From the IMG/VR virus record IMGVR_UViG_2925891887_000001: a stretch of DNA of 64,000 bases. One strand, given 5' to 3'. Shown one piece after another: positions 4,700 through 39,249 of the stretch. The notes beneath the pieces are model-generated. The model had not been told where the DNA came from and did not search any database. It worked only from the letters and a program-made list of their open reading frames with translations. The stretch's first letter is position 1. Each line of letters opens with the position of its first letter. The position numbers and the translations under genes are program-made. Source of the stretch: a virus (taxonomy: Duplodnaviria > Heunggongvirae > Uroviricota > Caudoviricetes).

Positions 4700-4804
4700 C
4701 ATATGGTGGGGTGTATCCCCACCTTCTCTTTGATTTGTAAGCCTTGTTTAAACAAATAAGATAACAACTTGTTTAAACACATCAAAAAGCAAAAGGAAAA
4801 ACAC

Positions 4805-5947
4805 ATGTCATATTCAACGTTCCGTTTGGGTGCTAATGATGCAACCAAAGAGCCTATGTTCCTCGGACAATCTGTCAACGTGGCACGTTACGATCAGCAA
4901 AAATACCGTGATTTTGAAAAGTTGATTGAACGTCAATTGTCTTTCTTCTGGCGGCCGGAAGAAGTTGATATTTCGAGCGATCGTATCGACTTCAACACGA
5001 AGCTGCGGGACCACGAACGTCACATTTTTCTGAGCAATCTCCGTTATCAAACGTTACTCGATTCAGTTCAGGGACGTAGCCCAAATGCAACGCTGCTGCC
5101 GCTTATCTCTATTCCTGAACTGGAAACGTGGGTTGAAACATGGTCTTTCTCTGAGACTATCCATAGCCGCAGCTACACCCACATTATTCGTGGCATGGTG
5201 GACGATCCGAGCATTGTTTTTGACGGTATTGTTACGGATGAAGAAATCATCAACCGAGCGATCAGTATCTCTGCTGAATATGACAGGCTTTATGGGATGA
5301 CCTGCGAGCGCCAGTCGTTAGGTGAGAAAGAGTTTGAACGTCTGTACGTAAATGAATATGGCTGGGAGCCATACCCTTTGCATCGTCAGCTTTTCCGCAC
5401 GTTGGTGTCCATTAATGCGCTTGAGGCGATCCGTTTCTACGTAAGTTTTGCATGTACGTTTGCCTTTGGTGAACGGAAGTTGCTTGAGGGTAACACCAAA
5501 ATTATGCGCTTTATTGCCCGTGATGAAGCTCTGCATTGCGAAGGAACTGAACGCATGATCCGCTTCATGCGTACCGGTCGCGAAGGTTTATTGTGGAAAG
5601 AGATTGCTGCTGATGAAGAAAACGTCATTTACGACACCATGAAATCAGTCGCCGAACAAGAAATGAACTGGGCAGACTATCTCTTCAAAGACGGTTCGAT
5701 GATTGGTTTAAACGCGGATATTCTCAAAACCTATGTAAAATACCGCACCAATCTGGCTATGAATCGTCTTGGCCTGAAGGCTTTATTTCCAGAAGTTACC
5801 ACTGATCCGCTGGTCTGGATGAACAAGTGGTTGTTAACCGACACACTGCAAATTGCACCACAAGAGGCAGAGCAAAGCACATATCTGGTAGGTCAGATAG
5901 ATTCTACCGTGGATAAGGCTTCTCTAAGCCAGTTTGCAGACCTGTAA
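4805..5947 (+). CDS. nrdB: ribonucleoside-diphosphate reductase beta subunit
   Basis: Start moved to internal ATG (MSYSTF...) preceded by AAAAGGAAAAACAC leader; colinear with E. coli NrdB ([29 protein letters not shown], di-iron ligands). Confidence 0.93.
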
Positions 5948-6024
5948 ACCGATACAAAGCATTATGTGGCCTGGCAACGCTGGGCCACAATGGATCACAA
6001 GAATTAAGAAGGAACAAAACTAGC

Positions 6025-6894
6025 ATGAACTTTACCAAACTGACTGACCACCTGAAACTTGCCACCGATCGACTCATTGGATTTAAGCCAGAACCATATG
6101 AGTTGCATGAAGGCCATGGTGTAGCCACTGAAAGTATTTACAAGATGGTCGATCAGTTTCATGAACTCTTCCAGCATCCGAGACGCGTTATGCCGACACC
6201 AGCGCTGCTTCGTCTCCGTGCAAGCCTGATTCATGAAGAAGCTGTAGTGGAAGGTATTCCAGCCGCAATGAATGGGGATATTGAGCAACTGCTGGATGCA
6301 ATGGCCGACTTTTTATACGTTGGTGTTGGTACGATGGTCGCCATCAAAGGTGGTATTTCTACCGGCATGACCTATTACACGCAGGAACAGAGCATTGATC
6401 GCTTTATGCAGACAATTTTTGTGCCTGGTAACACTGTTTTCGATGATATGGCAATGCCATTTCAGGAAGCTCGTGAGGCGTCATGTATGCTCGAAGAGCT
6501 GGCAGATAAACTTGAGAACAAGACTGTTAAGGATTCTGAGCTGATTCAGGAACTGCGCCGTGTAATGAACAAAATCTATGTGGCGTGCATGATGACCTAT
6601 CGACTGGCTGATTTCCTCGGTATCAATGTTGTCGAGCTGGTTGGCGAAATTCATCGGTCCAACATGACAAAATTATGGCCTGCAGATGCCGAAGAGCGTC
6701 GCCATGCTGTGGCCAACTGCAAATACGACTCTTCTGACCTGGGATTTCGCCATGCTGATGGCACCGATAAGATGATCGGTTTTCGAATTTCCGATGGAAA
6801 GATTCTGAAGTCTCCAACCTATAGTGATGTCGATTTATCCTCCTTTGTTGAGCAAGCTAAAGCCTCAGCAATGTACGGAATGATCAAAAAATAA
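6025..6894 (+). CDS. putative MazG-like nucleoside triphosphate pyrophosphohydrolase (tandem domains)
   Basis: SD AAGGAAC; two acidic helical segments resembling MazG/HisE EExxE motifs; tentative. Confidence 0.35.
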   Translation: MNFTKLTDHLKLATDRLIGFKPEPYELHEGHGVATESIYKMVDQFHELFQHPRRVMPTPALLRLRASLIHEEAVVEGIPAAMNGDIEQLLDAMADFLYVGVGTMVAIKGGISTGMTYYTQEQSIDRFMQTIFVPGNTVFDDMAMPFQEAREASCMLEELADKLENKTVKDSELIQELRRVMNKIYVACMMTYRLADFLGINVVELVGEIHRSNMTKLWPADAEERRHAVANCKYDSSDLGFRHADGTDKMIGFRISDGKILKSPTYSDVDLSSFVEQAKASAMYGMIKK

Positions 6895-7065
6895 TTGTAG
6901 GTAGTTATCTATCTGTGTATATTGCATTTGCGCGTTAAATTTCTGAAACAACTATTCGTTTTTGGTGGCCTATGGCCACCATTTTTTTATCTATCTGGTC
7001 TTGTTCTCTCAATAAATGTAAACTCACACAATGAATAAGTGGTTACTTATCTTTGTGAGGTTTTT

Positions 7066-8169
7066 GTGTCACTCCTTTTGAATCGTGAGCATACGAACGG
7101 TCAGGTAACAAACGCATCGTATGCAAAAGTTATTGAGACGGTGCTTAAAAGCGGCGTGCAGGCTGATGATCGCACAGGCACTGGTACTTTAAGCACCTGC
7201 TACGTTCCCTCTTACTACATGCTTACTGGTGGGACTGTGCCGCTTATTTCTGGAAAGGCGGTAAATCTTAAGCCACTACTTGTCGAACTTGAGTGGTATC
7301 TGAAAGGCACGGGCAACATCCAATTTCTCAAGGATAACGGCGTTAAGATTTGGGATGCATGGGCCGATGAGAATGGCGATTTGGGGCCGGTTTACGGTAA
7401 GCAGTGGCGTCGATGGGAAGATACCCGCATCGTGAGCCATAGTGAATATCTGAGCAAGATCGATACTTTCCGTGAACGCGGGTACAAAGTCGAGGGATAC
7501 CTGGGTATCAGTGAAGATCGCGTAGTGCTGTCCCGTGAAATCGATCAGCTACAGCGTATTGTCGATACACTGCGCACGAATCCTACCGATCGTCGCATCA
7601 TGCTTAACGCATGGAACGTAGGCGAGCTTGAGGATATGAAACTGCCACCTTGCCACTTTGTCTTCTCTTTGTGGAGTCGTGAGCTTGATTTTGAAACCCG
7701 TTTAACGATGGCAACTGACATTGGTCTTCAACACAGTCGCCTCGGTTATGAGTCTATCTACACCAAGATGCTATACGATCTGGAGATGGACGGCAGTGTT
7801 ACTGAAACTGAACTGGATGAACTTGGAATCCCCAAACGCATCCTCAACTCCTGCCTCGTACAGCGTAGCGTAGACACTTTTGTTGGTATGCCATTCAATA
7901 TTGCTGGCTATGGCATTCTCACTCATTTTCTCGCGAAGATTACGGGTCACATGGCCGGTGCATTTGTGCATTTTGGCTTTGACGTGCATTTGTACAACAA
8001 CCACATGGAAGGTGTGTGTGAGCTAATGCAACGACAGGCTCCAGAGCATTCAGATCCGGTCGTTATATTCCCTAATGAATGGTCTGAGCTGGATGATTTC
8101 AAATGGGACGAGATTCTTATTCTTGGCTATGCCCCTCTACCGTGGATCAAGGTTCCAGTGGCGGTGTGA
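7066..8169 (+). CDS. thyA: thymidylate synthase (with lineage-specific insertion)
   Basis: DRTGTGT, GDLGPVYGKQWR, catalytic LPPCH, QRSVD, MPFNIAGYG; GTG start with GAGG 6 nt upstream chosen (ORF track opens at 7039). Confidence 0.85.
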   Translation: MSLLLNREHTNGQVTNASYAKVIETVLKSGVQADDRTGTGTLSTCYVPSYYMLTGGTVPLISGKAVNLKPLLVELEWYLKGTGNIQFLKDNGVKIWDAWADENGDLGPVYGKQWRRWEDTRIVSHSEYLSKIDTFRERGYKVEGYLGISEDRVVLSREIDQLQRIVDTLRTNPTDRRIMLNAWNVGELEDMKLPPCHFVFSLWSRELDFETRLTMATDIGLQHSRLGYESIYTKMLYDLEMDGSVTETELDELGIPKRILNSCLVQRSVDTFVGMPFNIAGYGILTHFLAKITGHMAGAFVHFGFDVHLYNNHMEGVCELMQRQAPEHSDPVVIFPNEWSELDDFKWDEILILGYAPLPWIKVPVAV

Positions 8170-11717: not shown

Positions 11718-11900
11718 CGTTCCCCTACTTAAAATAAAGCCCATAGAGAGCTTTATAGTACTGGGTAAGCCAATCACATACCCAGCACCACAAAAACGCG
11801 CCAGAGAGCTTCTCGTTTGCATTTCTGGCGTGTTTTATTTGATTGCCAGACATAAAATCAAATGCAAAAATAGGTATATACTTACCTATCGAGAAAGAAG

Positions 11901-12500: not shown

Positions 12501-12600
12501 CTGGTGTCTGTAATTAGCCTGCTTCTGTATATATAAATAACTACATATTAATTATTAATATACGGAAGAAGGCTGTTTTGTATCAGAGACTCCAGACCTG
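12501..12600. repeat. nested inverted-repeat element R1 (copy of R2 at 39057-39154)
   Basis: gcctgcttctgtatatat ... atatacggaagaaggc arms around an AT-rich loop, outer ctggtgtctg/ccagacctg; about 75% identical to R2. Confidence 0.6.
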
Positions 12601-13492: not shown

Positions 13493-14083
13493 ATGACGAC
13501 GAAGACACCAGCCCGATCGCAAGCAAAAACTCGCAAAAAAGCCAAAAACAAAAATTCCCCCCGCACCAATCCCACAACGCCTGTCGTAGAGTTCAATCCC
13601 CAGCTTAAAACCGTGAAAATCTTTAGTGATGGCTCTTGCCTTAAAAATCCGGGTGGCCCGGGCGGTTACGGTATCGTTCTCCAGTATCGTGGTGAGGAAC
13701 GCGAGTTCTCAGATGGTTTTCATAGCACCACCAATAACCGCATGGAGATGATGGGGGCACTTATCGGGCTGGAGCGTTTGAAATATCCATGCAACGTTAT
13801 TTTGCACTCTGATAGCCAGTATCTGAAAAACGGCATGACACAGTGGATGAAATGGTGGAAACGCAATGGATGGATGACTTCTGACAAAAAACCGGTAAAG
13901 AATGTTGATCTGTGGAAGCGTCTGGATGAGGCCGCAAGTCGACATAATGTTCGCTGGAAGTGGGTTAAAGGTCACGCCGGGCATCGTGAAAATGAAATAT
14001 GTGATCGACTCGCGAAGATCGCAGCTTTTTCAGCAGCAGATATGCCTCACAAGAAAGATATTGGTTTTGTTTATAATAAATAG
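13493..14083 (+). CDS. rnhA: ribonuclease HI with basic N-terminal extension
   Basis: [41 protein letters not shown], [12 protein letters not shown] colinear with E. coli RnhA; SD CAGGAG. Confidence 0.85.
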
Positions 14084-14231
14084 TAAGTAAGTGTTTACCT
14101 ATCATTTTAAATCATGTATCTTATCGGCGTCAGGATGACAATGTGTCGGTAAGACACAGTTCCAGGATGGAACGAGAAAGGCGGCTGGCAATCGCCAGCC
14201 GCAACTCTTTCTGACACTGGATGGAGTCCAC

Positions 14232-14726
14232 ATGGCACGTCAAACCTATTTCACTTCTGTAACTAAACGCCCTCGTTCTTTACGTCAAATTTTGGCCGAA
14301 TTATTTAGCGGTCGTGTTATGTCACGCCTTGAAGAACTAGAGACTACCGTTCGGTTGCTGAATGAACGTTTAGATAATCAAGCGTCAGTTGTTGCGAACG
14401 TGGGGGCGATTGTTGCCTCTGGCTCTTCACGCGAAGCGAAAAATGCACGGCCTTTAGTGAAGGAGAAAAACAACAAGGACAGTTCGAATGGAAAATTTTC
14501 AAAGAAAGAGGCTGAAACCAATGGCCTACGTTCTCATTATAGTTTCACTGGCGACGGTAGCCGTTCCAGCCGGTCAGAGCCTTTTGATGCCGGATTCATC
14601 CACCACCACACCTTCGTCGACGACAATTATCACCACTCCAGTGGAGCGTCCTGTCACTCTGGATGGGATGGCGGTGGATGCGATACCTCAAGTTCATCCA
14701 GTTACTCAGGATCATGCTGTGACTAA
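14232..14726 (+). CDS. hypothetical protein (N-terminal coiled coil; 3' half overlaps next ORF in another frame)
   Basis: ORF with GGAG upstream; C-terminal third is low-complexity and may be non-coding. Confidence 0.3.
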   Translation: MARQTYFTSVTKRPRSLRQILAELFSGRVMSRLEELETTVRLLNERLDNQASVVANVGAIVASGSSREAKNARPLVKEKNNKDSSNGKFSKKEAETNGLRSHYSFTGDGSRSSRSEPFDAGFIHHHTFVDDNYHHSSGASCHSGWDGGGCDTSSSSSYSGSCCD

Positions 14727-14739
14727 GGCGGTTGTATGA
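14521..14739 (+). CDS. small membrane-anchored Thr/Pro-rich protein (72 aa)
   Basis: SD AAGAGG 9 nt upstream; hydrophobic MAYVLIIVSLATVAVPA then TTTPSSTT; stop overlaps next start (ATGA). Confidence 0.4.
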   Translation: MAYVLIIVSLATVAVPAGQSLLMPDSSTTTPSSTTIITTPVERPVTLDGMAVDAIPQVHPVTQDHAVTKAVV

Positions 14740-14924
14740 ACTGGTTTTCAAATCACTTTGGAAAAATTTGGCTGGCAATTCTTGCCCTCATGGCCGCCGG
14801 TTGGGTATCGAACATTATAAAACTTGTTTGCTCTGGCGATCTCCAGTTTCAGGCTGGCATGACCTTGGCTCGTGTAGTTGGGATTTTTGTTTTTCCAGTT
14901 GGTTCGGTACTTGGTTATTTCTGA
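14736..14924 (+). CDS. small membrane protein (62 aa, two predicted TM helices)
   Basis: Translationally coupled ATGA overlap; hydrophobic segments. Confidence 0.4.
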   Translation: MNWFSNHFGKIWLAILALMAAGWVSNIIKLVCSGDLQFQAGMTLARVVGIFVFPVGSVLGYF

Positions 14925-14977
14925 CGGCTGTTAGTGCATATGCATTGACCATCTCTGCGTAAGCAATTTATGTAATT

Positions 14978-14994
14978 AGAAAACAACTTGTTTT
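14978..14994. promoter_or_regulatory. motif A palindrome AGAAAACAAcTTGTTTT (operator/promoter-like)
   Basis: Palindrome 24 nt upstream of ATG 15018, followed by conserved leader AAAGGAAAACACATG. Confidence 0.5.
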
Positions 14995-15017
14995 GACAAA
15001 TAATAAAAGGAAAACAC

Positions 15018-15443
15018 ATGTTAGGTTTCTTCAAAAAGAAAACTCGTAAAGCTGTTATCGAAGTCAAAAAAATGGAGAACCGTGATGCGGTTGAGGCCAC
15101 CGTGTGGGGCGCGTACATGATCTCCTATGCCGACGGCACATGTGACGCAAAAGAAATTGCCATTCTTGAGAAGACAATTGCAGCTCTGCCTGCGTTTTCT
15201 CCGTTTGCTGGTGAAATTGCCCAAATGAGCGCCAATATCCGTGCTCGTTACGAAGCGTCCCCTCGTTCTGCTAATGCACAGGCTATTCGTGAGCTGTCTG
15301 ATATTGCGGGTACTCCAGAGGCGGTCGATGTTCTGTGTCTGTGCCTTGATATTGCCGATCAGGACGGCATTGGTGAACAAGAAGAGCAGGCACTGAAAAA
15401 GATCGCCCAGGCGCTTCAGTTGTCACTGGATGCTTATCTCTAA
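15018..15443 (+). CDS. TerB-like domain protein
   Basis: Two helical ADG/ADQDG...E segments (YMISYADGTCDAKEIAILEK, LCLDIADQDGIGEQEEQAL) typical of TerB-family proteins. Confidence 0.45.
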   Translation: MLGFFKKKTRKAVIEVKKMENRDAVEATVWGAYMISYADGTCDAKEIAILEKTIAALPAFSPFAGEIAQMSANIRARYEASPRSANAQAIRELSDIAGTPEAVDVLCLCLDIADQDGIGEQEEQALKKIAQALQLSLDAYL

Positions 15444-15601
15444 TGCTTGAGAGATTCCGGCTTGTGATCGTCATTGCTCTTCTGGTGATGGCGGTGTTGG
15501 TGGATTTTACGGGAAAGATGATGTCTGTCATTTCTGATGGCGTCCTCATTGGTCTGGCGATCTACTTCGCTTATCCGCTAGTCCGTAAAGCAACGTGTTA
15601 A
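15443..15601 (+). CDS. small hydrophobic protein (about 52 aa)
   Basis: ATG overlapping TerB-like stop (TAATG); two hydrophobic stretches; below ORF-track size cutoff. Confidence 0.3.
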   Translation: MLERFRLVIVIALLVMAVLVDFTGKMMSVISDGVLIGLAIYFAYPLVRKATC

Positions 15602-15706
15602 TGACAAGGGCCAAATGGCCCTTGTGTTTCGTTGACCGAAATAGAGAGTTTGCACCTTTACGTTTAGCTTGCTCCCCTTTTATGCCACATCACAATAAAG
15701 CCAATA

Positions 15707-15722
15707 AGAAAACAACTTGTTT
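15707..15722. promoter_or_regulatory. motif A palindrome AGAAAACAAcTTGTTT
   Basis: 18 nt upstream of ATG 15741 with AGGAAAAACACATG leader. Confidence 0.5.
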
Positions 15723-15740
15723 AAGCATTAGGAAAAACAC

Positions 15741-16307
15741 ATGTGCAAGAAATGCAAAGCGATAGCTGATGAACAAAACGCCTTATTCGAAGAAATGGAT
15801 GCTAATGAACTGGTCAAAATGTTAGCCATTCTTCGAGGAATAGAAGACGTTTCCATATTTGAGAGAGTGGTTACAGCACTTAATTTTGAGTCCACCTTTG
15901 AAGAGCCAACTCAGGTTGTAGCTTTAGCACATCATTTCGGTGTTCATTATCTTGCTGAAAAAGAGAGAGCTGATAAGTTGCAAGCGACTTTGGATATGGT
16001 GAGCGAGACTCCAGGACCTCATGACGGTAACAAAAGTGAGACGATTATTGCCAGCAAAGATCGTGAAATTGCCGGGCTTAAATCCTCTCTAACGATGTTG
16101 ATGTCTGCAATTAACCTTATGTCTTCTAAAGCAGGTTATAAAATGCCATCACTAAACAGCGACGATCCGATGGCCGTTCGCCAGCTTTTAGGTGCAATGG
16201 CCGACCAGCTCGAAGACACAAAGAGTCGCCTTGAAGACATGATGCGGGAGCTCACGCATCGCCATGACTTGAATAAGCAGCCGCACAAAACGCAATACGC
16301 ACTCTAA
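15741..16307 (+). CDS. hypothetical protein (188 aa)
   Basis: Conserved leader and ATG. Confidence 0.45.
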   Translation: MCKKCKAIADEQNALFEEMDANELVKMLAILRGIEDVSIFERVVTALNFESTFEEPTQVVALAHHFGVHYLAEKERADKLQATLDMVSETPGPHDGNKSETIIASKDREIAGLKSSLTMLMSAINLMSSKAGYKMPSLNSDDPMAVRQLLGAMADQLEDTKSRLEDMMRELTHRHDLNKQPHKTQYAL

Positions 16308-16448
16308 TACAGCACCAGTCGACAGGGGGCGACAGCCCCCATTTTTACGCCTTAAATCTGCTGTAACGCCTATGAATGCAGCTTTTATGCCTTTTCAAGT
16401 TTGCGATAATTACACCAATCAGAAAACAAATTATTTAATGGTGTAATT

Positions 16449-18134
16449 ATGAATACAGCCCTTTCCATCATCGACGATGCCAGCTCAAACACGGCTATCG
16501 ACTATCGTCAGGAAATGAATGTCATCCACGAAATCGTGGCCGAGTGCGAGAAAGAGATCGCCTTCATGTATCAGGTACACGACTTCGTTTATGGCGACGA
16601 ACGCCACAACATGATTAATCGCCTGCTGAGACTAAACCATCGACCAGATGAAGATCGCTCGCGTTTAAATCGAGGTTGGTTGGATAAAGTCGATCTGGAA
16701 TGGGTGAAACAGAATATTTGGGCCGAGTACTGGAGGAAGGTCACGGACATGACTAACGTTTTGCTGATCATGCCAGCTTCCCGTCGAGATGAGTGGCGCG
16801 AGCAGTTTATAGAGGGCAAACAGGAAGTCATCAAAACTGACAGAACCGGCTACCAGATGAAGGTTAAAGAGTTCGTTGGTGTACCGGAGTTCAAAGCAGA
16901 AACGGTCATACCCACGATGCTTAATTTGCTGAATGACAGGCACAAATATCTCTCTGAGCGCGTGTATGGCTTGTTTAAGGCGCTGAGTCCTGCGCACAAG
17001 ACAAATAAGACAAACGGTTTCAGCGAGCGGCTGATAATCGCTGACTGCATTTCTGATTTCTGGCGGGACAGCGTTAGCGTGAACTATCGCAAAGAGGACT
17101 ACATCGACGATCTGCGTGTCTTGCTTCATTTCTTCGCGCACAAAGAATTTATTACCATCAATCGCACTGCTGAGGTGCTATCAGCTGCGTATCGGGCAAA
17201 CGACTGCCAGACCGGTGACTGGATGAACGTCGATGGAAATCTGATGCGCGTGAAGATGTTCAAGAACGGCAACGTTCACTTTGAAATACATCCTGACGTG
17301 GCCTGGAAGTTGAATGAGGTGCTGGCTTACAGTATGCCTGCTGCAATCCCCGCGCCATGTCGCACCGCGCCAAAAACACGGGCACCAAAGCAGTTCGGGT
17401 TAATCCAGAAGACGATCTCCGTGCCGGTTCGCACTGCGCTTCGTGACGGGCGATTGAGCAAAGACAAAGGCGTATGGTACTTCTCTGATTCAGCTCTCCA
17501 GAAGTCGCAGGTGGAAGAGCTTGAGCGCACACTGAGCTTCATTGGCGGCGTGCAGGAGAAAAAACACTGGCAGTTCCCGTATGAGATCGGCCATACGCTA
17601 AATACGATTGTGGCTACCGGATTAATACCGGATACAAAATCACACCAGTTCTACCCTACCCCACGCTTGATTGCTGAGTACGTTGCCAGAGCCACTGAAT
17701 TGAAGTCTGGTGAGAAGCTGCTGGAGCCTCAAGCCGGACGTGGGGATCTTCTGGCCTATATCAACGCCGATCTGGAAGATGTTACCTGCATAGAAATCGC
17801 ACCTCTCTTCGCTGATATCCTGCGCGGAAAAGGGTATACGAACACGATTTGCTGCGACTTCATAAAGTGGTCTGAGGACAACGTAGGTTATCAGTTCGAC
17901 AAAATCGTTATGAACCCGCCGTACTCGCTTGGTCGTCATAGAGAGCACACGCTGGCTGCGCTGGGGCATCTGAAAGTCGGCGGGCGTCTTGTAGCAGTAT
18001 TGCCGGGCACTGCGCCAATACTGGACTGGATGACGATGGATAATTACGTTTATGCCAGAGGGAAGTCGTTTACCAACGAGTTTGAAGACACAGGGATCAC
18101 AGTCAGCGTATACGTTTTCAAACGCGTTAAATGA
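16449..18134 (+). CDS. DNA N6-adenine methyltransferase with large N-terminal domain of unknown function
   Basis: C-terminal about 170 aa carry gamma-class motifs: QFYPTP (X), EPQAGRGDL (I, SAM-binding), NPPYS (IV); N-terminal about 390 aa unassigned. Confidence 0.7.
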   Translation: MNTALSIIDDASSNTAIDYRQEMNVIHEIVAECEKEIAFMYQVHDFVYGDERHNMINRLLRLNHRPDEDRSRLNRGWLDKVDLEWVKQNIWAEYWRKVTDMTNVLLIMPASRRDEWREQFIEGKQEVIKTDRTGYQMKVKEFVGVPEFKAETVIPTMLNLLNDRHKYLSERVYGLFKALSPAHKTNKTNGFSERLIIADCISDFWRDSVSVNYRKEDYIDDLRVLLHFFAHKEFITINRTAEVLSAAYRANDCQTGDWMNVDGNLMRVKMFKNGNVHFEIHPDVAWKLNEVLAYSMPAAIPAPCRTAPKTRAPKQFGLIQKTISVPVRTALRDGRLSKDKGVWYFSDSALQKSQVEELERTLSFIGGVQEKKHWQFPYEIGHTLNTIVATGLIPDTKSHQFYPTPRLIAEYVARATELKSGEKLLEPQAGRGDLLAYINADLEDVTCIEIAPLFADILRGKGYTNTICCDFIKWSEDNVGYQFDKIVMNPPYSLGRHREHTLAALGHLKVGGRLVAVLPGTAPILDWMTMDNYVYARGKSFTNEFEDTGITVSVYVFKRVK

Positions 18135-18150
18135 TAGGTAAATACTTACT
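18133..18150. promoter_or_regulatory. motif B palindrome GATAGGTAAATACTTACT
   Basis: Overlaps stop codon of methyltransferase gene. Confidence 0.45.
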
Positions 18151-18194
18151 TAGTTTATGTAAGAATGTAGTAACTAAACGATAAGAGAAAACAC

Positions 18195-18899
18195 ATGAGC
18201 AACCTCCAGTTAGAGCATTTTAACGTCACAGGCCATTCCGATTTTCCTTTCAAGTTTACATTGAAAGGTTATGCAGAGGATGCGGTAGGCCAGATCATTA
18301 TTGATAAAGACATCGTTAAGTTTGAGGGGAATTTTGATGAATCCGCGAAAACATTCATAGACTTCGTTGCCAAACGTTGGAGCGAGCAATGGAAAAACCT
18401 GGAAAAGCGCGCCAATGAGTTTGATCGGTTCATGGATGCAATGGATACAGCAAAAGAGGCTCTTGATGCCGGGACTCCGTTAGATCTGGAGTCACTTTTC
18501 AACGGCGAAGTGGCCTCTGCGATGTTCGCCACCATGTTCGCGGGTGAGTTCGTCCGCAGCGGTGCCAAAAACTACCTTGAGCTGGATTACAACGTCCCTG
18601 CAATTGGCGATTTCGTCGTTACCATCCAACGCAAAGAAGGTAAGACGCCAGGTGAACGCGTCGCAGAGCTTGAGGCCGTTGTGGATCAGCGTAACGGAGA
18701 GTGTGACCGTTTGATCAACGAGCTTCATGCACTTCGGGAAGAAAGAATATGTGCGGGTAGCAATACACGTAATGCAGCGGATATCTACTTCCAGTTAGTT
18801 GAGGAATGCCAGATTCCACCAGGTGGCTCTCTTGTCGATTACGTCAGACATTTAATGGCGGAAGTTAACTCCAGCCATAAAGATGGTGAGGTGCGCTGA
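18195..18899 (+). CDS. hypothetical protein (234 aa)
   Basis: Conserved leader AGAGAAAACACATG. Confidence 0.45.
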   Translation: MSNLQLEHFNVTGHSDFPFKFTLKGYAEDAVGQIIIDKDIVKFEGNFDESAKTFIDFVAKRWSEQWKNLEKRANEFDRFMDAMDTAKEALDAGTPLDLESLFNGEVASAMFATMFAGEFVRSGAKNYLELDYNVPAIGDFVVTIQRKEGKTPGERVAELEAVVDQRNGECDRLINELHALREERICAGSNTRNAADIYFQLVEECQIPPGGSLVDYVRHLMAEVNSSHKDGEVR

Positions 18900-19279
18900 T
18901 GTTTGGCATTGACGCACAGCGTATAGCCGCTTTTGCAAAAAGCCCTCTTGATAATCCCTTGTCTCGTAGTGAGCAAATGGAGCTGGCAAGGCTTTTTATT
19001 CACATTCAAAAACAGGCAGACGTTTTCAATAACATGCCTAATCAACCTATTCTGGATGGTCACATCCAGATGGTCATTAACAGTCATGAGAAAGGCTGGG
19101 CTGCAATCGTCCCCTGCACAATTACATACAGGTTGGCGAAAGAGGTTCAAGAGTTTCGAAAAGCCAGTGTCGAATCGGAGTCTACCAAAGCCGCAATAAA
19201 CACTCTTATTCGCATGGGGTTCACATGGACCGGTGGAGCCTACTGGCAAGCACCTCACCCCATTTTATCCGGCAATTAG
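18899..19279 (+). CDS. hypothetical protein (126 aa)
   Basis: ATG overlaps upstream stop. Confidence 0.4.
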   Translation: MFGIDAQRIAAFAKSPLDNPLSRSEQMELARLFIHIQKQADVFNNMPNQPILDGHIQMVINSHEKGWAAIVPCTITYRLAKEVQEFRKASVESESTKAAINTLIRMGFTWTGGAYWQAPHPILSGN

Positions 19280-19441
19280 ACGCTACAAATCCTTCGGCAT
19301 GAATAAATAAAGGCCATAAGTTGTGGCCTTAAATAAATTGTTTTCTACCTTTTCTTATTTGTGAAAATAACCACAACTAGAAAACAACGGAGTTAAGAAT
19401 GTCTAGTATTTCCGAAGCTCATATGTTCGCCGCTGGCGCTC

Positions 19442-19568: not shown

Positions 19569-19577
19569 ACCTTTTTA

Positions 19578-22869: not shown

Positions 22870-22889
22870 TTAAGCAACCTCTGTTCGCA

Positions 22890-22918: not shown

Positions 22919-22952
22919 ATAGACACAATCCCTCCTGATTTACACAAGCCTT

Positions 22953-22967
22953 AAAACAATTTGTTTT
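22953..22967. promoter_or_regulatory. motif A palindrome AAAACAATTTGTTTT (second copy at 23002-23017)
   Basis: First phage-type element to the right of the host segment. Confidence 0.5.
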
Positions 22968-23030
22968 CTACCTTTTGTTGATTGAGATAATAAGCCACAT
23001 AAGAAAACAAATTGTTTCGGAGTGGTTGAA

Positions 23031-24691: not shown

Positions 24692-24829
24692 GTGTAATTA
24701 GCTTAATCAATCAGTTGATAATGGCGGTCACAATTTGATTCTTTTCTATAAGAATCCGTTGATCGCCACTACTCTTCTTCCATACCTGCAATCACACCTT
24801 TAAATATCAATAGGTTAACGTTGTTTATA

Positions 24830-25675
24830 CCAATAAGAAAACAACTAAATAACAGATCAACGAAACATCAACGCTTTCACCCGATTTGGTCTAAAAAATT
24901 GACGTTTTCACACATCACTTCTTATACCCGTAATTCTACGCAGCAGATAGCGCTACAGCGTCCAAATTTCACCACAGACGACTCAACACACTACCAACAA
25001 AAACACACGCTCAAAATCGCTCCCGTTGCGTTACACAACCATATAAACAACTTATTTTCAGGTATAACAAAACAACTAAATAACACACATGCCATTACCC
25101 AAAACAACCAACCTCTTTATGGCAGGCTACCGAAAAGACCCACCTCTTCTCCCCAGGCTACCGGACAACCAACCTAACTTTCACAGGCAATCCGAAAACA
25201 TTCATACGCGCGATACCCACGACACGCCATTACCCAAACAGCGAAGAAACACCAGAATCACTGAAAACCCAACGAAGCCTGTTACCGCAAGGATTCTCTC
25301 AATCCCAAAAGACACGAAACAGAACAATCACGGGAAACGCCATTACCCAATACACGAATAACTACAAAAGCCTTTCACACACTCCAGACAAACAACTCAA
25401 ACACAATAACGAAAGGAATCGCCCACCTGCCATTACTCCATACACGGAGAAGAACAATCACCAAAACGACGAGAACACCCCATAGAAGAACCACCGCAAA
25501 ACGAACGAAACCACATACACCGACAGAGAGAACAACACACCCAATTCACCAACAGAAATAGTCGCCGTATAGAACGTTCTGGAAGGAGTGAGCATTAACG
25601 CCTATAGAGAGGTTGAGACAGATAAAACACAACATGTATAGCGAAGAAGCCAGGTATGTATAAGTGGGGAGGGAA
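24830..25675 (+). ncRNA. candidate long G-depleted (A/C-rich) non-coding transcript
   Basis: About 12% G over about 730 bp; begins at a half motif-A promoter-like element; four spaced GCCATTACCC copies; ends at terminator 25676-25697; only low-complexity chance ORFs. Confidence 0.3.
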
Positions 25676-25697
25676 GGAGGGGTGTCGCCTCCTTTTT
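25676..25697 (+). terminator. intrinsic terminator
   Basis: ggagg...cctcc stem followed by TTTTT. Confidence 0.5.
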
Positions 25698-25744
25698 CGT
25701 ATTTATTCAACTCCTGATTTTATCCCCCGTAACACCCCTACGGT

Positions 25745-25900
25745 CAGCCTTCGGTCCATACAGGGAAAAGGTTGCATCCCGCTACAGAAACGGCTGGGTT
25801 GCCTTCGGGGAACGGCTGGAGGTTTTCAGGGAAACGGTCGAGTTGCCTGTGTGGATTTCGGGAAAAGGCTCGATGCCGGTTCAGGAACGGTGGCGTACCG
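25745..25900. repeat. array of at least 6 degenerate 22-24-bp repeats with core (C/T)AGGGAAAcGG
   Basis: cagggaaaaggttgc, cagaaacggctggg, cggggaacggctgg, cagggaaacggtcg, cgggaaaaggctcg, caggaacggtggcg. Confidence 0.6.
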
Positions 25901-26271
25901 GTATAGCGAGAGGGAGAGTTGCGGCTACCCACCTGTAATGTGCGGGAAGAAGAGAGGCGCTCACGTAGGCGGACTTGCTTACCGCTGGATTCCCTCTGAA
26001 TGCCCAGCTACAGCGTAATTGTGCCAGACAGCCAGCGGGTCACAATCGATTTCAGTAGGTTTTTGGGGAGAGGATTACTCTGCCACCAGCCACTTTCGGC
26101 CACTAAATCAGAATAATGTAAAAAGTGCACTCGGTACTGAACCTGAAAACTCACTGCCAAAACCACATTCACCGGAATAAAATCCTTTTTCGCCTGTGCG
26201 TTATTGCGATAATAACACCAACAAGTAAACAACATGTTTAGACGTTATATAAACGAAGTGAGGATGAAGAG

Positions 26272-26490
26272 ATGATTAAGATGCCTGTGACGGTTGAGGT
26301 GTGGGGCGTGGATTCCCTGGCTGAGTGTCTGGATGCAGTGGGGCCGGAGTTGTACCGCAAGTTGTGGTCGTTCGTCCCGGCAGAAGGGGAACCGCCCAAG
26401 GGGAAGGATATCTGGCACCTGCTGAGTGAAGATGAAAAGCGGGAGCTGGTGGACGCGGTACACAGCGAGTTCCCGGGCGACGAAGATTAA
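26272..26490 (+). CDS. hypothetical small acidic protein (72 aa)
   Basis: SD GAGGATGAAGAG then ATG; terminator immediately downstream. Confidence 0.45.
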   Translation: MIKMPVTVEVWGVDSLAECLDAVGPELYRKLWSFVPAEGEPPKGKDIWHLLSEDEKRELVDAVHSEFPGDED

Positions 26491-26497
26491 GAGTGAG

Positions 26498-26520
26498 GCC
26501 ACCAGCACGGTGGCTTTTGT
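26498..26520 (+). terminator. intrinsic terminator
   Basis: gccaccagcacggtggc followed by TTTTGT. Confidence 0.55.
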
Positions 26521-26628
26521 CGCTATTAACCTCCGGGCAGCGCAACACCGTAACGATATACTTTGTGGCCGTTTTCTTACTGGTATTGTTTACGCAATTT
26601 AGAAAACAACATGTTTAAGGATTGCTTT

Positions 26629-26958: not shown

Positions 26959-27111
26959 CCCCAACCAAAGCCAGCATTGCTGGCTTAATTTCTCTATAGA
27001 CGCAGGGAAGAACCTGCATATCGCTCATGCGCCTGATCAATATGCTTTGTAGCCGTTTTCTTACTGGTATTATTTACGCCATTGAGAAAACAAGTTGTTT
27101 ACGGAGTTGTA

Positions 27112-27982: not shown

Positions 27983-28062
27983 AAGCCCGATAACAATTTG
28001 TTTTCTGCCTTATCTGATTTGTGAAAATGATTTCACTGAAGCAAGTTAATAAGGAAACCATC

Positions 28063-28725: not shown

Positions 28726-28751
28726 TCGTACAACGATAATTAACACCAACA

Positions 28752-28766
28752 AGAAAACAATTTGTT
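28752..28766. promoter_or_regulatory. motif A palindrome AGAAAACAATTTGTT
   Basis: 21 nt upstream of ATG 28788. Confidence 0.5.
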
Positions 28767-28787
28767 ATTTACGATAAGGAATTAATC

Positions 28788-29270: not shown

Positions 29271-29318
29271 CTGAGAAGAGGGCCAGAAACGGCCCTTTCT
29301 CTATAGCCACCAGCTGCC

Positions 29319-29479
29319 GCAGGGAAATTTTCAGAAACGGCGAGGAACGTATTCATGAGCCGACGGGGAACGGCCAGGATTTTTTCGGGAAACGGCTGCA
29401 TTTGCCTTTGTGTAGAAAAAACATCGGGAAGCTGGTGGAATCCAACCAGCGGTTGTCGGACAGGTGAGCGGGGAAAATT
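29319..29479. repeat. second array of degenerate GGGAAAcGG-core repeats
   Basis: cagggaaattttcagaaacgg, cgacggggaacggccagg, tttcgggaaacggctgc, catcgggaagctggtgg, gcggggaaaatt. Confidence 0.55.
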
Positions 29480-29805
29480 ATGATGACTTTCGTCACCTGA
29501 GACATCCAGATTTCTTTCGTAGCATAATCACATACGTGATTAAGTGGTGTGATTATGTGAAAAATCACGCGCACATAATACGCGAGCGGATACGGAACAA
29601 AACAAAATGCCGATCCGCGCCGACAAATAAACGCGGATCATAAAGCAAGACTAAAAGCCAATGATTAACTATGCGCTATAACGCGTTTTAAGCGCGTTAA
29701 TGTGTTAAGTAATGGGTATGTACTGGCAAGGATATAAAAGCGCGTCTATGGCGTTATTTTGGCGCTTATTTTTATGTTGTTGGAGTGAGTTAAAGACAAT
29801 AAAAA

Positions 29806-29876
29806 ACGCGCCATCAATGGCGCGTTATTGTGGAAGTATTGGAAACGAAAAAAGCGCCCATAGTGGGCGCTCGATT
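29806..29876. terminator. pair of bidirectional terminator hairpins at convergence of rightward and leftward transcription
   Basis: aacgcgccatcaatggcgcgtt and agcgcccatagtgggcgct, each flanked by A/T runs on both strands. Confidence 0.55.
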
Positions 29877-30107
29877 TTATTTGTGTAAACTGATTTTAAA
29901 TCCCATTTCTACGAACGCTTTTAACATTAAAAATATATCAGCGTCGTTCACGTCTGCTTTTTTTCGCTCCTGGTCGCTCAATAAGTCAATTTTGCGCGTC
30001 GTTTCATCTATAAGCTCGACTACACGCCCAGCGTAACCAGCGATCCCAGCGATGCGATTAACATAATATTCATTATGGACGTTAACGCCAGCGATAAGAA
30101 CAAACAT
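29877..30107 (-). CDS. hypothetical protein (76 aa), AT-rich cassette
   Basis: Leftward ORF, last gene before convergent terminators. Confidence 0.4.
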   Translation of the reverse strand: MFVLIAGVNVHNEYYVNRIAGIAGYAGRVVELIDETTRKIDLLSDQERKKADVNDADIFLMLKAFVEMGFKISLHK

Positions 30108-30128
30108 GATTAAGCTCCTTAAAAAAAA

Positions 30129-30332
30129 TTAAATAGAATTTTGAAGTTTTCCGATTAATGCGCTTAAGCGTAAGTATTCACGTTTGCGCTTGCAATCTCG
30201 CTTGCTGTTAAGCAAATCAGAAAACGTAAAATTTAATTGGTCGCGTTGCGCGATCAAATCGTCGATTAATTCCAGTTTATAAGCGCGATAATTTGCGCGA
30301 TATTCTGCGCGGATCTTGTCATAGCTGACCAT
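30129..30332 (-). CDS. hypothetical small coiled-coil protein (67 aa), AT-rich cassette
   Basis: Start moved to internal Met with AAGGAG 8 nt upstream; hairpin agcgcccacaatgggcgct just upstream. Confidence 0.4.
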   Translation of the reverse strand: MVSYDKIRAEYRANYRAYKLELIDDLIAQRDQLNFTFSDLLNSKRDCKRKREYLRLSALIGKLQNSI

Positions 30333-30380
30333 CTTTAAAGCTCCTTTAAAGCGCCCATTGTGGGCGCTTGATTCCATTAA

Positions 30381-31326: not shown

Positions 31327-31851
31327 TTAAAATGGAAGGATTCGTTCAACCCAATCGAAGAAAACAAGTATTTTTCTGCCGTCTTCTAACTTAAGAGTGA
31401 CCTGGCAAGCATCAACGCCTCTTGACACCCCTTCTATTTCACGACCGTCTGTCATGTAGACCCTTATAGATTGGTCGTTTTGATAAGCCTTGCGACATAT
31501 CGCAAAAAAGTCACGGCGTGATGGCTGATTGTCAACATAGTCTGGATGTATTGTTAGCCTACCTTTGAACTCGCGAGCAATGTCATCGATTACACCTGAT
31601 TCAATTGTGCTAATGCGCTCAAGTGGGAGTCTTATACGATTTTCTTTATCATATGGAATCGGGCATAAATCTAGCTTATTGCGTGAAGGCATTGTCCCCT
31701 GAACGTACATGCAAAACACCTGACCGTCTTCAAGCGTGACTCTTACAGGAATGTTGTTCTTCCGCCAGAACATAAGTATGTTCTCAGCATGTTCGTAGTC
31801 TCGCGGCCAGACTTCAGCCGGTATGCCGTAGGTGATGTCCAATGTTCTCAT
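31327..31851 (-). CDS. hypothetical protein (174 aa), AT-rich cassette
   Basis: 4-nt overlap with upstream gene (translational coupling). Confidence 0.45.
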   Translation of the reverse strand: MRTLDITYGIPAEVWPRDYEHAENILMFWRKNNIPVRVTLEDGQVFCMYVQGTMPSRNKLDLCPIPYDKENRIRLPLERISTIESGVIDDIAREFKGRLTIHPDYVDNQPSRRDFFAICRKAYQNDQSIRVYMTDGREIEGVSRGVDACQVTLKLEDGRKILVFFDWVERILPF

Positions 31852-33728: not shown

Positions 33729-34007
33729 TTACGGCAACCTGCTCAGTATTTCCTCTAGATCTTTTTTTGTCATATTGGAGTTCTCATAGATGCGCATGAT
33801 TTTCTCACGCGTCTTAGCGGAAACCCCAACGGCAGATGTGACTTTGTCAAATTCAGCCATAGTCATCGTCTCCAGAATGGCATTGATAACTTCAGCCTTA
33901 GACATCTTGATTTTTTTCTCTTTGAGTTTTATTTGAAATTTTCCAAGTTTTTCATTGGCCTTATCAGACAATGCCACTTGGCAATAAGTTGTTTTCTTTT
34001 CGCTCAT
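33729..34007 (-). CDS. hypothetical small protein (92 aa), possible DNA-binding
   Basis: Lys-rich helical protein immediately downstream of helicase gene. Confidence 0.4.
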   Translation of the reverse strand: MSEKKTTYCQVALSDKANEKLGKFQIKLKEKKIKMSKAEVINAILETMTMAEFDKVTSAVGVSAKTREKIMRIYENSNMTKKDLEEILSRLP

Positions 34008-37882: not shown

Positions 37883-37887
37883 TCGAG

Positions 37888-38778: not shown

Positions 38779-38787
38779 GGATTTGCC

Positions 38788-39054
38788 ATGACGTTAACCG
38801 ATAAACAAAAGGACATCATCAAAACGCTCAATCTCGGTTATGAGCGAGGTCATCTACTTGACCTGGACGAATTGCTTGAAGTTTTGCCGTACAAGACAAC
38901 CAAGCAAAGTATCCAGTTCTCAATTCGCGCTCTGATAAAAAAGGGGCTGGTGGAGAAAGGGCATACGCGCCAACGCAGTGACAATCGCTATCACCGCCGA
39001 ACTCTTGGGTTAACTACTTTAGGTCGAGCCAAAGCGAAGTTACTGGTGATGTAA
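38788..39054 (+). CDS. small putative winged-helix DNA-binding protein (88 aa)
   Basis: Basic helical protein; pattern only. Confidence 0.35.
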   Translation: MTLTDKQKDIIKTLNLGYERGHLLDLDELLEVLPYKTTKQSIQFSIRALIKKGLVEKGHTRQRSDNRYHRRTLGLTTLGRAKAKLLVM

Positions 39055-39056
39055 TC

Positions 39057-39154
39057 GGTCTGGGAGCTTATTTAAAGACCTGCTTCTGTATATATAAATA
39101 ATAAGTAACTTATTAAATATATACGGAAGCAGGCTTCGTAAGACATGCCAGACC
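39057..39154. repeat. nested inverted-repeat element R2, 95 bp upstream of terS
   Basis: gacctgcttctgtatatat ... atatatacggaagcaggc inside ggtctggg ... ccagacc. Confidence 0.6.
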
Positions 39155-39249
39155 TAATTAAACACCCCAGAAAACAAGTTGGTTAGCAGATGCAGTAAAC
39201 AAGTTGTTTTAGAGCGCATGGACGCGCTCTGTGTGTTTTAGAGGGATCT

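Follow-up and report, generated by a model that had tools for sequence, protein, structure and literature searches.

The DNA analysed here (the window, 64,000 nucleotides) belongs to an SSU5-like phage-plasmid with 96-99% identity to Escherichia phage Cyrano. Such phage-plasmids are frequent in Escherichia, Salmonella, Klebsiella and Yersinia, where they may bear resistance and virulence genes. A palindrome, AAAACAA-n-TTGTTTT, recurs in the gene leaders of the window, and its sites and associated features are as follows.

4762..4774, plus strand: palindrome TAACAACTTGTTT before nrdB (ATG 4805), centre-to-ATG distance 37 nt, no -10 at the standard offset
14981..14993, plus strand: perfect site before a TerB/TciA-like gene (ATG 15018)
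15710..15722, plus strand: perfect site before a 188-aa gene (ATG 15741), with a -10-like CACAAT at 15691-15696
16402..16436, plus strand: full cassette, TGCGATAAT (16402-16410), 10 nt, then AGAAAACAAATTATTTA, before a DUF4942 gene (ATG 16449)
19331..19397, plus strand: double-site promoter, reversed palindrome 19331-19343, TGTGAAAAT at 19360-19368 and half-site AGAAAACAAC at 19379-19388; the downstream gene is interrupted by an IS1 remnant
22954..23017, plus strand: double-site promoter, reversed palindrome 22954-22966, TGAGATAAT at 22983-22991 and palindrome 23005-23017, with centres near -38 and +14 on the -10 assigned below; DUF5983 gene (ATG 23031)
24838..24854, plus strand: degenerate site, left arm only; relatives have a full palindrome at the equivalent place (L048 position 5526)
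25045..25085, plus strand: reversed palindrome 25045-25057 and, about 25 bp downstream, half-site 25069-25085, before ATG 25089
26205..26239, plus strand: cassette, TGCGATAAT (26205-26213) and palindrome 26227-26239, before a 72-aa gene (ATG 26272)
26581..26616, plus strand: cassette, TGGTATTGT (26581-26589) and palindrome 26604-26616, before ATG 26629
27065..27100, plus strand: cassette, TGGTATTAT (27065-27073) and perfect palindrome 27088-27100, before ATG 27112
27991..28028, minus strand: reversed palindrome 27991-28003, immediately behind a terminator-like hairpin, then TGTGAAAAT at 28020-28028, without a downstream partner; gene start 28063 (or GTG 28021)
28735..28767, plus strand: cassette, GATAAT (28735-28740, no TG) and palindrome 28755-28767, before a 160-aa gene (ATG 28788)
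39172..39209, plus strand: tandem sites 39172-39184 and 39197-39209 in the terS leader, centres 25 bp apart
39212..39240, plus strand: GC hairpin, GAGCGCatggacGCGCTC then TGTGTGTTTT, between the tandem sites and the terS Shine-Dalgarno sequence, maintained by compensatory changes in relatives

The first-pass annotation had listed 13 positions for this palindrome, and we found the motif at every one of them. Matches to AAACAANTTGTTT in the window numbered 15 (6 exact, 9 with one mismatch) against 0.42 expected; the largest count in 100 dinucleotide shuffles was 3. A weight-matrix scan at 14 bits or more gave 24 strand hits, one palindromic site being able to count on both strands, against 0.67 in Markov shuffles. 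The list had overlooked the strong reversed site 19331-19343 with its half-site partner 19379-19397, the reversed site 25045-25057 with its half-site 25069-25085, and the degenerate site 24838-24854. Gene leaders hold 13-14 of the 15 sites, and the site at 25051 falls within a doubtful annotated ORF. The core dyad is 13 bp long and the underlying unit is asymmetric, AGAAAACAAnTTGTTTa (17 bp).

Some details of the earlier description changed on measurement. The distance from site centre to start codon ranges over 18-72 nt rather than 18-60 nt. Tandem sites had been proposed for both terS and nrdB; the terS pair is real (39178/39203, 25 bp apart), but nrdB has one canonical site, 4762-4774, which comes after a terminator-like hairpin of nrdA (4705-4723) and is preceded by an everted TTGTTTAAACAA at 4744-4755. 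A tandem pair with a spacing of 51 bp (22960/23011) lies 5' of the DUF5983 gene. The shared ribosome-binding leader AGGAAAAACACATG also exists (4 matches at up to two mismatches against 0.78 expected, a count reached by 1 of 100 shuffles), but it is a feature separate from the palindrome because its copy at 18184 comes after a palindrome of another family.

The sites are embedded in a cassette of about 65 bp with the order TTG-like element, CCTTTTc, TGnGATAAT, AACACCAACA, palindrome and Shine-Dalgarno sequence. The extended upstream element described before (gcgataat..aacaccaa) is genuine, and we reread it as a -10 of the extended type (TGnGATAAT, with variants) followed by a conserved start-site region (AACACCAACA), both inferred from the sequence pattern. 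A -10-like hexamer (GATAAT, GAAAAT, TATTAT, TATTGT or CACAAT) ends 10-11 nt before AGAAAACAA in 8 of the 11 forward sites (background 2.9%), with TG in six of those eight, that is 6/11 forward sites (background 0.17%); binomial P values for these cassette statistics overstate independence, as the cassettes are paralogues. The standard offset holds no -10 at the forward sites 4768, 14987 and 39178. In all three reversed sites TGnGA(T/A)AAT starts 26 nt past the centre, each time with TG. Among 62 non-redundant cassettes from 71 relatives' loci the consensus was TTGnGATAAT, with TG, A at -11 and AAT at -9 to -7 conserved, and orthologous cassettes differ in the hexamer only at -12 and -10. TG, -11A and the AAT at -9 to -7 are the positions that matter for sigma-70. 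With TG one base 5' of the hexamer and with -11A and -7T in place, the element has the make-up of a sigma-70 extended -10. The proposal of a phage-specific early promoter class thus held in part: the palindrome at a fixed distance from an extended -10 does mark a promoter class, but the promoter looks like the ordinary host sigma-70 type. Several cassettes directly follow a terminator-like hairpin, as independent transcription units would.

If TGnGATAAT is the -10, the palindrome is centred near +14, a placing that depends entirely on that reading. At three promoters a reversed second copy lies exactly 51 bp further upstream, and the same -10 would put it near -38. At both places the site would overlap the RNA polymerase footprint. 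A palindrome near +14, downstream of the promoter, occupies the position of a repressor site rather than one used in promoter recognition.

All 15 sites of the window fall within 4762-39209, and the structural genes (39.3-64 kb) are without any. The whole Cyrano genome has 18 matches at up to one mismatch, none in its 28-kb structural block, and its sites extend to the parA, DNA helicase and cobT leaders. The idea of one regulon-like family, predicted to serve a symmetric DNA-binding protein, is supported. It is not specifically an early regulon, since it includes these three Cyrano leaders and the terS leader, which heads a late operon of about 28 kb.

In published RNA-seq of a Cyrano lysogen in LB, 14 of the 15 genes behind a site are near background, with a median of 9.8 (PMC9928086 table S1). 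The levels are 7.1 for terS, 21.1 for the helicase, 7.8 for cobT, 5.7 for gp58, 12.9 for nrdB, 7.0 for gp85, 7.1 for gp87, 6.3 for gp93, 7.5 for gp101, 12.8 for gp105, 12.2 for gp106, 5.7 for gp108, 6.7 for gp110 and 25.5 for gp111 (PMC9928086). Only parA is clearly expressed among the site-bearing genes, at 49.8 (PMC9928086). That parA bears a site yet is expressed in the lysogen counts against repression. In macrophages, the immunity-region gene gp46 rises about 90-fold and the cassette genes stay low (PMC9928086).

On balance we favour the palindrome as a repressor operator within a promoter-operator cassette with a sigma-70 extended -10, repressing the lytic units, and regard this as probable. 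Most likely, the cassette stands before about 20 lytic transcription units so that one repressor silences them all during plasmid life. Host sigma-70 RNA polymerase would use the extended -10 unaided, the -35 region being of a weak TTG type. Occupying about +5 to +21, a symmetric phage protein would block polymerase binding or escape, and at some promoters the reversed copy 51 bp upstream, over the -35 region, would strengthen the block. Each genome has about 17 strong sites, so that one repressor would govern almost all lytic transcription units during plasmid replication, among them those for nucleotide metabolism and replication, numerous small early genes and the late operon of terS. Within this reading the motif with its statistics, geometry and conservation, the lack of RNA-type covariation and the silence of downstream genes in the Cyrano lysogen are observed, whereas the start site, the act of repression and the choice of binder are inferred.

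Silence in the lysogen is equally expected from an absent activator. Two small proteins had been proposed as binders.

38788..39054, plus strand: 88-aa winged-helix protein, always directly 5' of terS
33729..34007, minus strand: 92-aa protein, possibly ribbon-helix-helix, fast-evolving

The 88-aa protein was predicted by AlphaFold2 as a winged helix-turn-helix fold (pLDDT 81, pTM 0.71), and Foldseek matched it to MarR, MepR, ZitR and AF1382 (TM 0.69-0.77). As a binder it has a conserved MarR-like winged helix in its favour, but it is silent in the lysogen, where its supposed targets are silent too. That joint silence would suit a lytic-only phage activator acting through the palindrome at an activator-dependent promoter class. 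The confident fold, the 84-100% conservation with an invariant recognition helix, and the constant place of the gene directly 5' of the tandem sites and terS are consistent with such a role, as are the terS leader without a good -10 and the reversed sites near -38, close to the class II activator position. However, activators hardly ever work from near +14, downstream of the -10, which is where most of the sites lie, and promoters with TG and a good -10 should need no activator. Moreover, relatives in Morganella, Xenorhabdus and Halomonas have the same recognition helix but no canonical palindrome in the terS leader. We consider positive control of this kind unlikely.

A temporal switch was weighed as well, and we judge it to have a similarly low probability. 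Here a lytic-phase protein, possibly the same winged helix, would act at +14 to shut early promoters and would open late expression through the terS tandem sites and hairpin, lysogenic silence being achieved by other means. The winged-helix gene is indeed the last before the late operon, at the end of the ParB-ATPase operon, with the tandem sites and the covarying terminator-like hairpin in between, and one site type serves early-type and late leaders. The rise of gp46 in macrophages with low cassette genes also suggests a second control layer. Yet this scheme does not account for how about 17 extended -10 promoters that look constitutive are kept silent in the lysogen, no late promoter could be positioned with respect to the tandem sites, and the distant relatives retain the 88-aa protein without the sites.

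The cassette is invariant in Escherichia, Salmonella, Klebsiella, Kluyvera and Yersinia relatives. All enterobacterial relatives retain the terS tandem sites, which are fused to one site in two of them (L224 and L233). Cyrano has one hybrid cassette, at 95807, that combines the two at 26233 and 26610 of the window; one unit of cassette plus gene is absent there. Many homology breakpoints lie within 50 bp of a cassette. The repeated promoter thus flanks variable genes and has recombination junctions inside it, as do PeSL (promoter-early stem-loop) repeats. PeSL repeats belong to T4-type virulent phages and have no operator; like the cassette they place a repeated early promoter next to a stem-loop at small variable genes, where recombination adds or removes gene units. 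Unlike them, the repeat of the window is part of a temperate phage-plasmid and includes a conserved dyad site. The hybrid cassette, the fused terS pairs and the clustered breakpoints would all fit repeats that are mainly recombination modules, or a host-factor site, with no dedicated phage regulator, but recombination is expected for any repeated promoter and leaves the position-specific conservation of half-sites, TG, -11A and -7T unexplained. We know of no E. coli transcription factor with such a palindrome consensus. This explanation is quite improbable.

The 6-bp arms show 43 single-arm changes, none with a compensating change in the other arm, and the leader RNAs are no more stably folded than shuffled sequences (z from -0.85 to +0.69), so the palindrome is best taken as a DNA site for a protein. 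It is dyad-symmetric with independently constrained half-sites, as is an operator, and Rfam gave no family in the window. Action in RNA, as a 5'-UTR hairpin for translation or mRNA stability or as the target of an RNA-binding protein, is very improbable: the palindrome would be transcribed immediately 5' of the Shine-Dalgarno sequence if the -10 assignment is right, and the two terS sites could pair together (z = -2.6), but single leaders reach only -0.9 to -2.9 kcal/mol, the arm changes are uncompensated and reversed copies near -38 would not be in the gene's transcript.

The repressor that would bind the operator is probably not encoded within the window. The 92-aa protein at 33729-34007 is an unlikely binder, with 51-58% identity and divergence at its predicted DNA-facing residues while the motif stays constant. 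A weaker motif match (17.4 bits) lies over codons 4-9 of its gene. Two other candidates were also disfavoured: gp43 is absent from all relatives, and the promoter of the putative repressor gp45 has a different palindrome, GGTAAGTGCTTACC. As the best candidate we tentatively put forward Cyrano gp29 (119 aa), which follows a type-Ib parA directly; the genes concerned lie outside the window.

29265, Cyrano: site at the start of the parA-gp29 operon
29307-29975, Cyrano: parA
29975-30334, Cyrano: gp29 gene, annotated RelE/ParE

Of 80 loci, 79 share the arrangement of parA with a small downstream gene, which also recurs in distant lineages, and the site at the start of the operon is conserved in every lineage. 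The gp29 core, RPQGRPTRGK..IKSRTMS.EDE...FTRSDVIRAAI, is invariant even in homologues of 48-64% overall identity, whose genomes keep the motif; where identity falls to 30-40%, AAACAA-type elements are still found before parA. A ribbon-helix-helix fold can be proposed from the sequence pattern (beta strand IKSRTMS, helix A, FTRSDVIRAAI), and the candidate target of a gp29-like protein is AGAAAACAAGTTGTTTA. Searches with gp29 gave no Pfam hit and no PDB sequence hit, and an hhalign probability of 0.1 to ParG. The protein is expressed in the Cyrano lysogen, at 89 (PMC9928086).

By its sequence, gp29 looks like a ParG/omega-type partition protein that may double as a global repressor. Omega of pSM19035 and ParG of TP228 are ribbon-helix-helix partition proteins that also repress promoters. 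Like them, gp29 is small, has a basic flexible N-terminal tail, directly follows a type-Ib parA and has a site before its own operon; the half-sites are likewise heptad-like (AAAACAA) and mostly inverted, being direct in one distant relative. Sequence similarity of gp29 to ParG, omega or any ribbon-helix-helix Pfam family was not demonstrable. A further step, which we regard as possible though doubtful, would make a gp29-type partition adaptor the master silencer of the lytic programme, the approximately 20 sites being both operators of extended -10 promoters and partition/loading sites.

Dispersed operators are known from other systems. The C1 regulon of P1 comprises at least 17 dispersed operators that control lytic genes genome-wide, each an asymmetric 17-mer, ATTGCTCTAATAAATTT. 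P1 is likewise a plasmid prophage with one operator type before many separate lytic units instead of one immunity region, whereas the window site is a dyad at a fixed distance from an extended -10. The P1 operator has no match in the window at up to three mismatches, and no C1-like protein was recognised. The main lac operator, O1, is centred at +11, with an auxiliary operator upstream. The cassette resembles it in having a main site just past the start site (at about +14) and an upstream second copy, but here the partner is only 51 bp off, over the -35, and the arrangement is repeated at many promoters. KorB of RK2 uses a 13-bp palindromic operator at many promoters, at some of them just upstream of the -35, and the window site is also a 13-bp palindrome at many promoters; the KorB operator TTTAGCSGCTAAA is not enriched (2 matches at up to two mismatches against 1.65 expected, both within structural genes). 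Our literature searches found no published description of the palindrome cassette, none of a partition protein silencing phage lytic promoters, no mapped transcription starts for any SSU5-like phage, and on lysogeny control in SSU5-like phage-plasmids only the label 'putative repressor'.

The cassette provides a testable map of nearly all lytic promoters with their common control site, together with a short list of candidate binder proteins. It points to a second layer of control in addition to the immunity-region repressor, whose own palindrome seems to be a different one. The cassette also marks points of gain and loss of gene units in SSU5-like genomes, and is predicted to be a compact, apparently strong and repressible promoter module. 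If a partition protein is the binder, there would be a simple mechanistic link for the switch between plasmid and phage lifestyles. With a gp29-type silencer, a single protein would enforce both lysogeny and plasmid maintenance, and its loss or titration, for instance when copy number rises, would send the element into lytic growth.

The palindrome was present at all 13 positions reported for it in the first-pass annotation. We found 15 matches to AAACAANTTGTTT at no more than one mismatch in the window, six of them exact, where 0.42 were expected and 100 shuffles gave a maximum of 3. A weight matrix built from those 13 sites returned 24 strand matches of at least 14 bits versus 0.67 in shuffles, and revealed sites that had been overlooked. 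These are listed here after the putative operator (orientation is relative to the downstream gene):

Operator site (putative): AAGAAAACAAGTTGTTTACGG
19337, reversed: strong site, with a half-site partner at 19388
25051, reversed: site with a half-site at about 25077
24845: degenerate site

All sites were confined to 4762-39209, with none in the 25 kb taken up by structural genes. Their distance from the start codon, previously put at 18-60 nt, measured 18-72 nt. Of the two genes proposed to be preceded by tandem sites, terS has them and nrdB does not; nrdB has one canonical site and an everted TTGTTTAAACAA instead, and the other tandem pair precedes the gene at 23031. The near-identical leader AGGAAAAACACATG, described together with the palindrome, is real (4 matches vs 0.78 expected) but separate from it, because the 18184 copy comes after a different palindrome.

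By megablast, window 14000-24000 is 97% identical to Escherichia phage Cyrano (OV696614) and CMS-2020a, and 87% identical to Salmonella phage SSU5. Direct alignment placed window 1-39116 on Cyrano 65580-108379 and 39117-64000 on Cyrano 1-24104, at 96-99% identity with a few indels, so the window is about 60% of an SSU5-like phage-plasmid. Its gene order starts with SbcC and nucleotide metabolism, continues with numerous small genes and closes with terS and the structural genes; parA, the replication genes and the immunity region lie outside. The entire Cyrano genome contains 18 matches at no more than one mismatch, again none in the structural block, and its sites beyond the window's set stand in front of parA, the DNA helicase gene, cobT and gp58. 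When viral contigs were scanned for the exact pattern, single chance matches predominated among the matches listed.

Weaker motif matches were also seen inside two minus-strand genes, both kept in Cyrano. One (31359-31377, 16.7 bits) lies in a gene of the low-GC accessory block at 30-34 kb (31327-31851, minus strand) encoding an FljA-like protein, a repressor of phase-1 flagellin (Pfam Flag1_repress, E = 3e-80); the other (33979-33997, 17.4 bits) covers codons 4-9 of the gene for a 92-aa protein. Window 24700-26000 is A/C-rich (AT skew 0.17) and without convincing ORFs, and a 17-bp direct repeat, AAAACAACTAAATAACA, occurs at 24838 and 25069, each copy overlapping a motif half-site. Possible explanations for this stretch are a non-coding RNA or the decay of former cassettes. 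An IS1 fragment (about 19438-19571), 99% identical to IS1 of P1 and SfIV, occupies the place of Cyrano CYRAN_93 to 98, an S24 peptidase gene among them, and the gene downstream of the 19388 cassette is truncated. Beyond it, an ApbC/Mrp iron-sulfur carrier gene (19578-20678, minus strand; NCBIfam PRK11670, 759 bits) diverges from a methionyl-tRNA synthetase gene (20707-22869, plus strand). The host mrp-metG locus has this arrangement, and the phage-plasmid has apparently acquired it by capture. In RNA-seq of the Cyrano lysogen (PMC9928086), the ApbC homologue reaches 92.

To describe the site, we used a collection from the window, Cyrano and 71 related loci retrieved via the DUF4942 protein. 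The site is asymmetric rather than a simple palindrome: written in the direction of the downstream gene, its sequence is AGAAAACAAnTTGTTTa. Of the two arms the left is far better conserved, with 5 changes versus 38 in the right (six core positions, 98 non-redundant sites). Removal of contexts more than 85% identical left 62 forward cassettes (promoter-plus-palindrome units of about 65 bp), with the consensus ..TTtT...CCTtTTc....TTG.gATAATaACACCAAcAAGAAAACAA.TTGTTTA followed by a Shine-Dalgarno sequence. The TGnGATAAT block looks like an extended -10 element. Among orthologous cassettes its hexamer varies between GATAAT, GAAAAT and AATAAT, and TG, the second A and the final AAT are invariant; these are the positions required by sigma-70. 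In the window, a -10-like hexamer ends 10-11 nt 5' of AGAAAACAA at 8 of 11 forward sites, with TG in 6 of these 8, against a background of 2.9% for the hexamer and 0.17% with TG; formal P values overstate independence because the cassettes are paralogues.

If transcription starts 6-8 nt 3' of the hexamer, the palindrome would be centred at about +14. Three promoters (19337/19388, 22960/23011 and 27997) have in addition a copy in the opposite orientation, centred exactly 26 nt 5' of the hexamer (near -38, given the inferred -10) and exactly 51 bp upstream of the downstream site where one exists; this spacing is identical in all relatives. At both about +14 and about -38, it is the better-conserved arm that points towards the promoter core. 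A number of cassettes lie directly 3' of the preceding gene's terminator-like hairpin and so head independent transcription units.

Judged by its pattern of change, the palindrome behaves as a protein-binding DNA site. None of 43 arm changes in the 98 non-redundant sites was compensated, predicted folding of leader RNA was no better than that of shuffled sequence, and an Rfam search of the window found no family. Cassette and consensus were unchanged in every enterobacterial relative examined. Both were kept in relatives with just 70% identity in the DUF4942 protein, in contigs of Kluyvera and Yersinia pestis, and in lineages whose putative repressor is 65-70% and cobT 72% identical. The tandem terS sites were likewise kept throughout the enterobacterial clade, fused by a 25-bp deletion in two relatives. 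In more distant relatives, with terL 58-82% identical (Morganella, Xenorhabdus, Halomonas and others), no canonical site was found within 10 kb on either side of terL, a span with too few cassette positions, and parA beyond it, to discriminate motif-protein covariation.

RNA-seq values for every Cyrano gene in the lysogen are given in table S1 of PMC9928086 (background median 9.8). Fourteen genes directly behind sites have values at this level or close to it: terS 7.1, helicase 21.1, cobT 7.8, gp58 5.7, nrdB 12.9, gp85 7.0, gp87 7.1, gp93 6.3, gp101 7.5, gp105 12.8, gp106 12.2, gp108 5.7, gp110 6.7 and gp111 25.5; only parA (49.8) is clearly expressed (PMC9928086). About 17 apparently self-sufficient promoters are therefore silent in the plasmid state. 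The Cyrano prophage is induced by ciprofloxacin. A repressor at the shared site would be expected to produce this silence, but so would the lack of an activator, and we count the observation as support and not as proof. We favour, as the somewhat more probable reading, a repressor operator on a sigma-70 extended -10 promoter that holds lytic units off. The operator would be built into the promoter just downstream of the start, and at some promoters a second operator over the -35 region would reinforce the block.

We then considered which protein might occupy the site. When all small cassette-downstream proteins and the candidate regulators were scanned with Pfam, PHROGs and NCBIfam, useful matches came only from ParB_N, TerB, DUF5983, FljA and ApbC. 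The best remaining candidate, which we put forward tentatively, is gp29 of Cyrano, a 119-aa protein encoded directly 3' of the type-Ib parA and annotated RelE/ParE. A conserved palindrome site opens the parA-gp29 operon, and gp29 is expressed at 89 in the lysogen (PMC9928086). The N-terminal tail of the protein is basic and variable and leads into IKSRTMSLEDE...FTRSDVIRAAI; the pattern resembles ParG, omega or CopG. This core is invariant in every motif-keeping lineage, including homologues 48-64% identical overall. Where homologues are 30-40% identical, AAACAA-type elements still precede parA; one such case has direct repeats, the other a variant palindrome. For the predicted gp29 fold there was no Pfam or PDB match, hhalign to ParG gave a probability of 0.1, no remote homology to RHH proteins was detected, and a profile search found only 18 representatives.

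The two binders suggested in the first-pass annotation fared less well. The 88-aa protein (38788-39054) is confidently predicted to be a MarR-like winged helix, is 84-100% conserved and always adjoins terS. Against it as lysogenic repressor are its background level in the lysogen (7.8; PMC9928086) and a recognition helix unchanged in distant relatives with site-free terS leaders; it may act as a lytic-phase regulator. The 92-aa protein (33729-34007) may be a ribbon-helix-helix protein (its single-sequence model is poor, pLDDT 65) and is expressed at 114 in the lysogen (PMC9928086). It is an unlikely binder: it diverges to 51-58% identity between lineages with identical motifs, with variation at the residues that would contact DNA. 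In the lysogen, gp43 (Cyrano 40268-40822, minus strand) has the highest transcript level, with 7084 reads, about 720-fold over background (PMC9928086); it had no family or structural match, and none of 52 related loci carries it, making it an accessory gene. Its signal reflects either a highly expressed accessory gene or overlap with an abundant small RNA. The S24 peptidase gp98 is missing from the window's element, which retains all sites, and the putative immunity repressor gp45 is set aside since the gp45/gp46 intergenic region of Cyrano has GGTAAGTGCTTACC in place of the site.

A second dispersed palindrome family, (a)ATAGGTAAGTACTTACCTA(t), was found at window 2322-2335, 11873-11886, 14086-14099, 18137-18150 and 41138-41151, and in Cyrano (L002) at 22451, 26660 and 42606. 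In the window its members lie upstream of nrdA, dam, the portal gene and the genes at 14232 and 18195; in Cyrano they also lie upstream of the tail fibre and holin genes. Directly 3' of the TTTACA-N17-TAATAT promoter of the gene for gp45, an annotated putative repressor encoded outside the window, there is a perfect GGTAAGTGCTTACC, invariant in both lineages. The family is probably the regulon of gp45, and probably the first motif family of the first-pass annotation.

The terS leader differs in having two sites 25 bp apart and no good -10 at the standard offset. Between them and the Shine-Dalgarno sequence lie a GC hairpin, GAGCGCatggacGCGCTC, and a T-rich run, TGTGTGTTTT (39212-39240). Compensatory changes in relatives (GAGCAC/GTGCTC, CGGCGC/GCGCCG) preserve the hairpin, which may be a leader terminator; this suggests that the late operon is subject to an extra step of termination or antitermination. 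Two copies of another hairpin, long, AT-rich and GC-clamped (CCTGCTTCTGTATATATAAAT...ATATACGGAAGCAGG), occur 3' of dam (12517-12575) and 3' of the 88-aa winged-helix gene (39079-39133); possible roles are termination, protein binding or packaging.

Cassettes also act as recombination points for gene gain and loss. The window (26227-26616) has a unit of cassette plus 72-aa gene (26272-26490) that Cyrano (95798-95816) lacks; the single Cyrano cassette (95807) is a hybrid of window cassettes 26233 and 26610, joined within the palindrome. The PeSL repeats known from T4-type phages behave alike. Functionally, the closest system is the C1 regulon of phage-plasmid P1, in which one operator is likewise dispersed over many lytic units, although P1's asymmetric operator is absent from the window; in operator position, the cassettes resemble lac O1 with its auxiliary site. 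In a full-text literature search we found neither the palindrome motif nor the control of lysogeny in SSU5-like elements described. Should gp29 be the binder, the best parallels would be two partition proteins that are global repressors, omega of pSM19035 and KorB of RK2, though the KorB operator itself is not present in the window. The cassettes would thus form a regulon with dispersed operators, as in other temperate phages. One symmetric phage protein would keep nearly all lytic units off during plasmid maintenance, and a partition protein may be what silences them in lysogeny.
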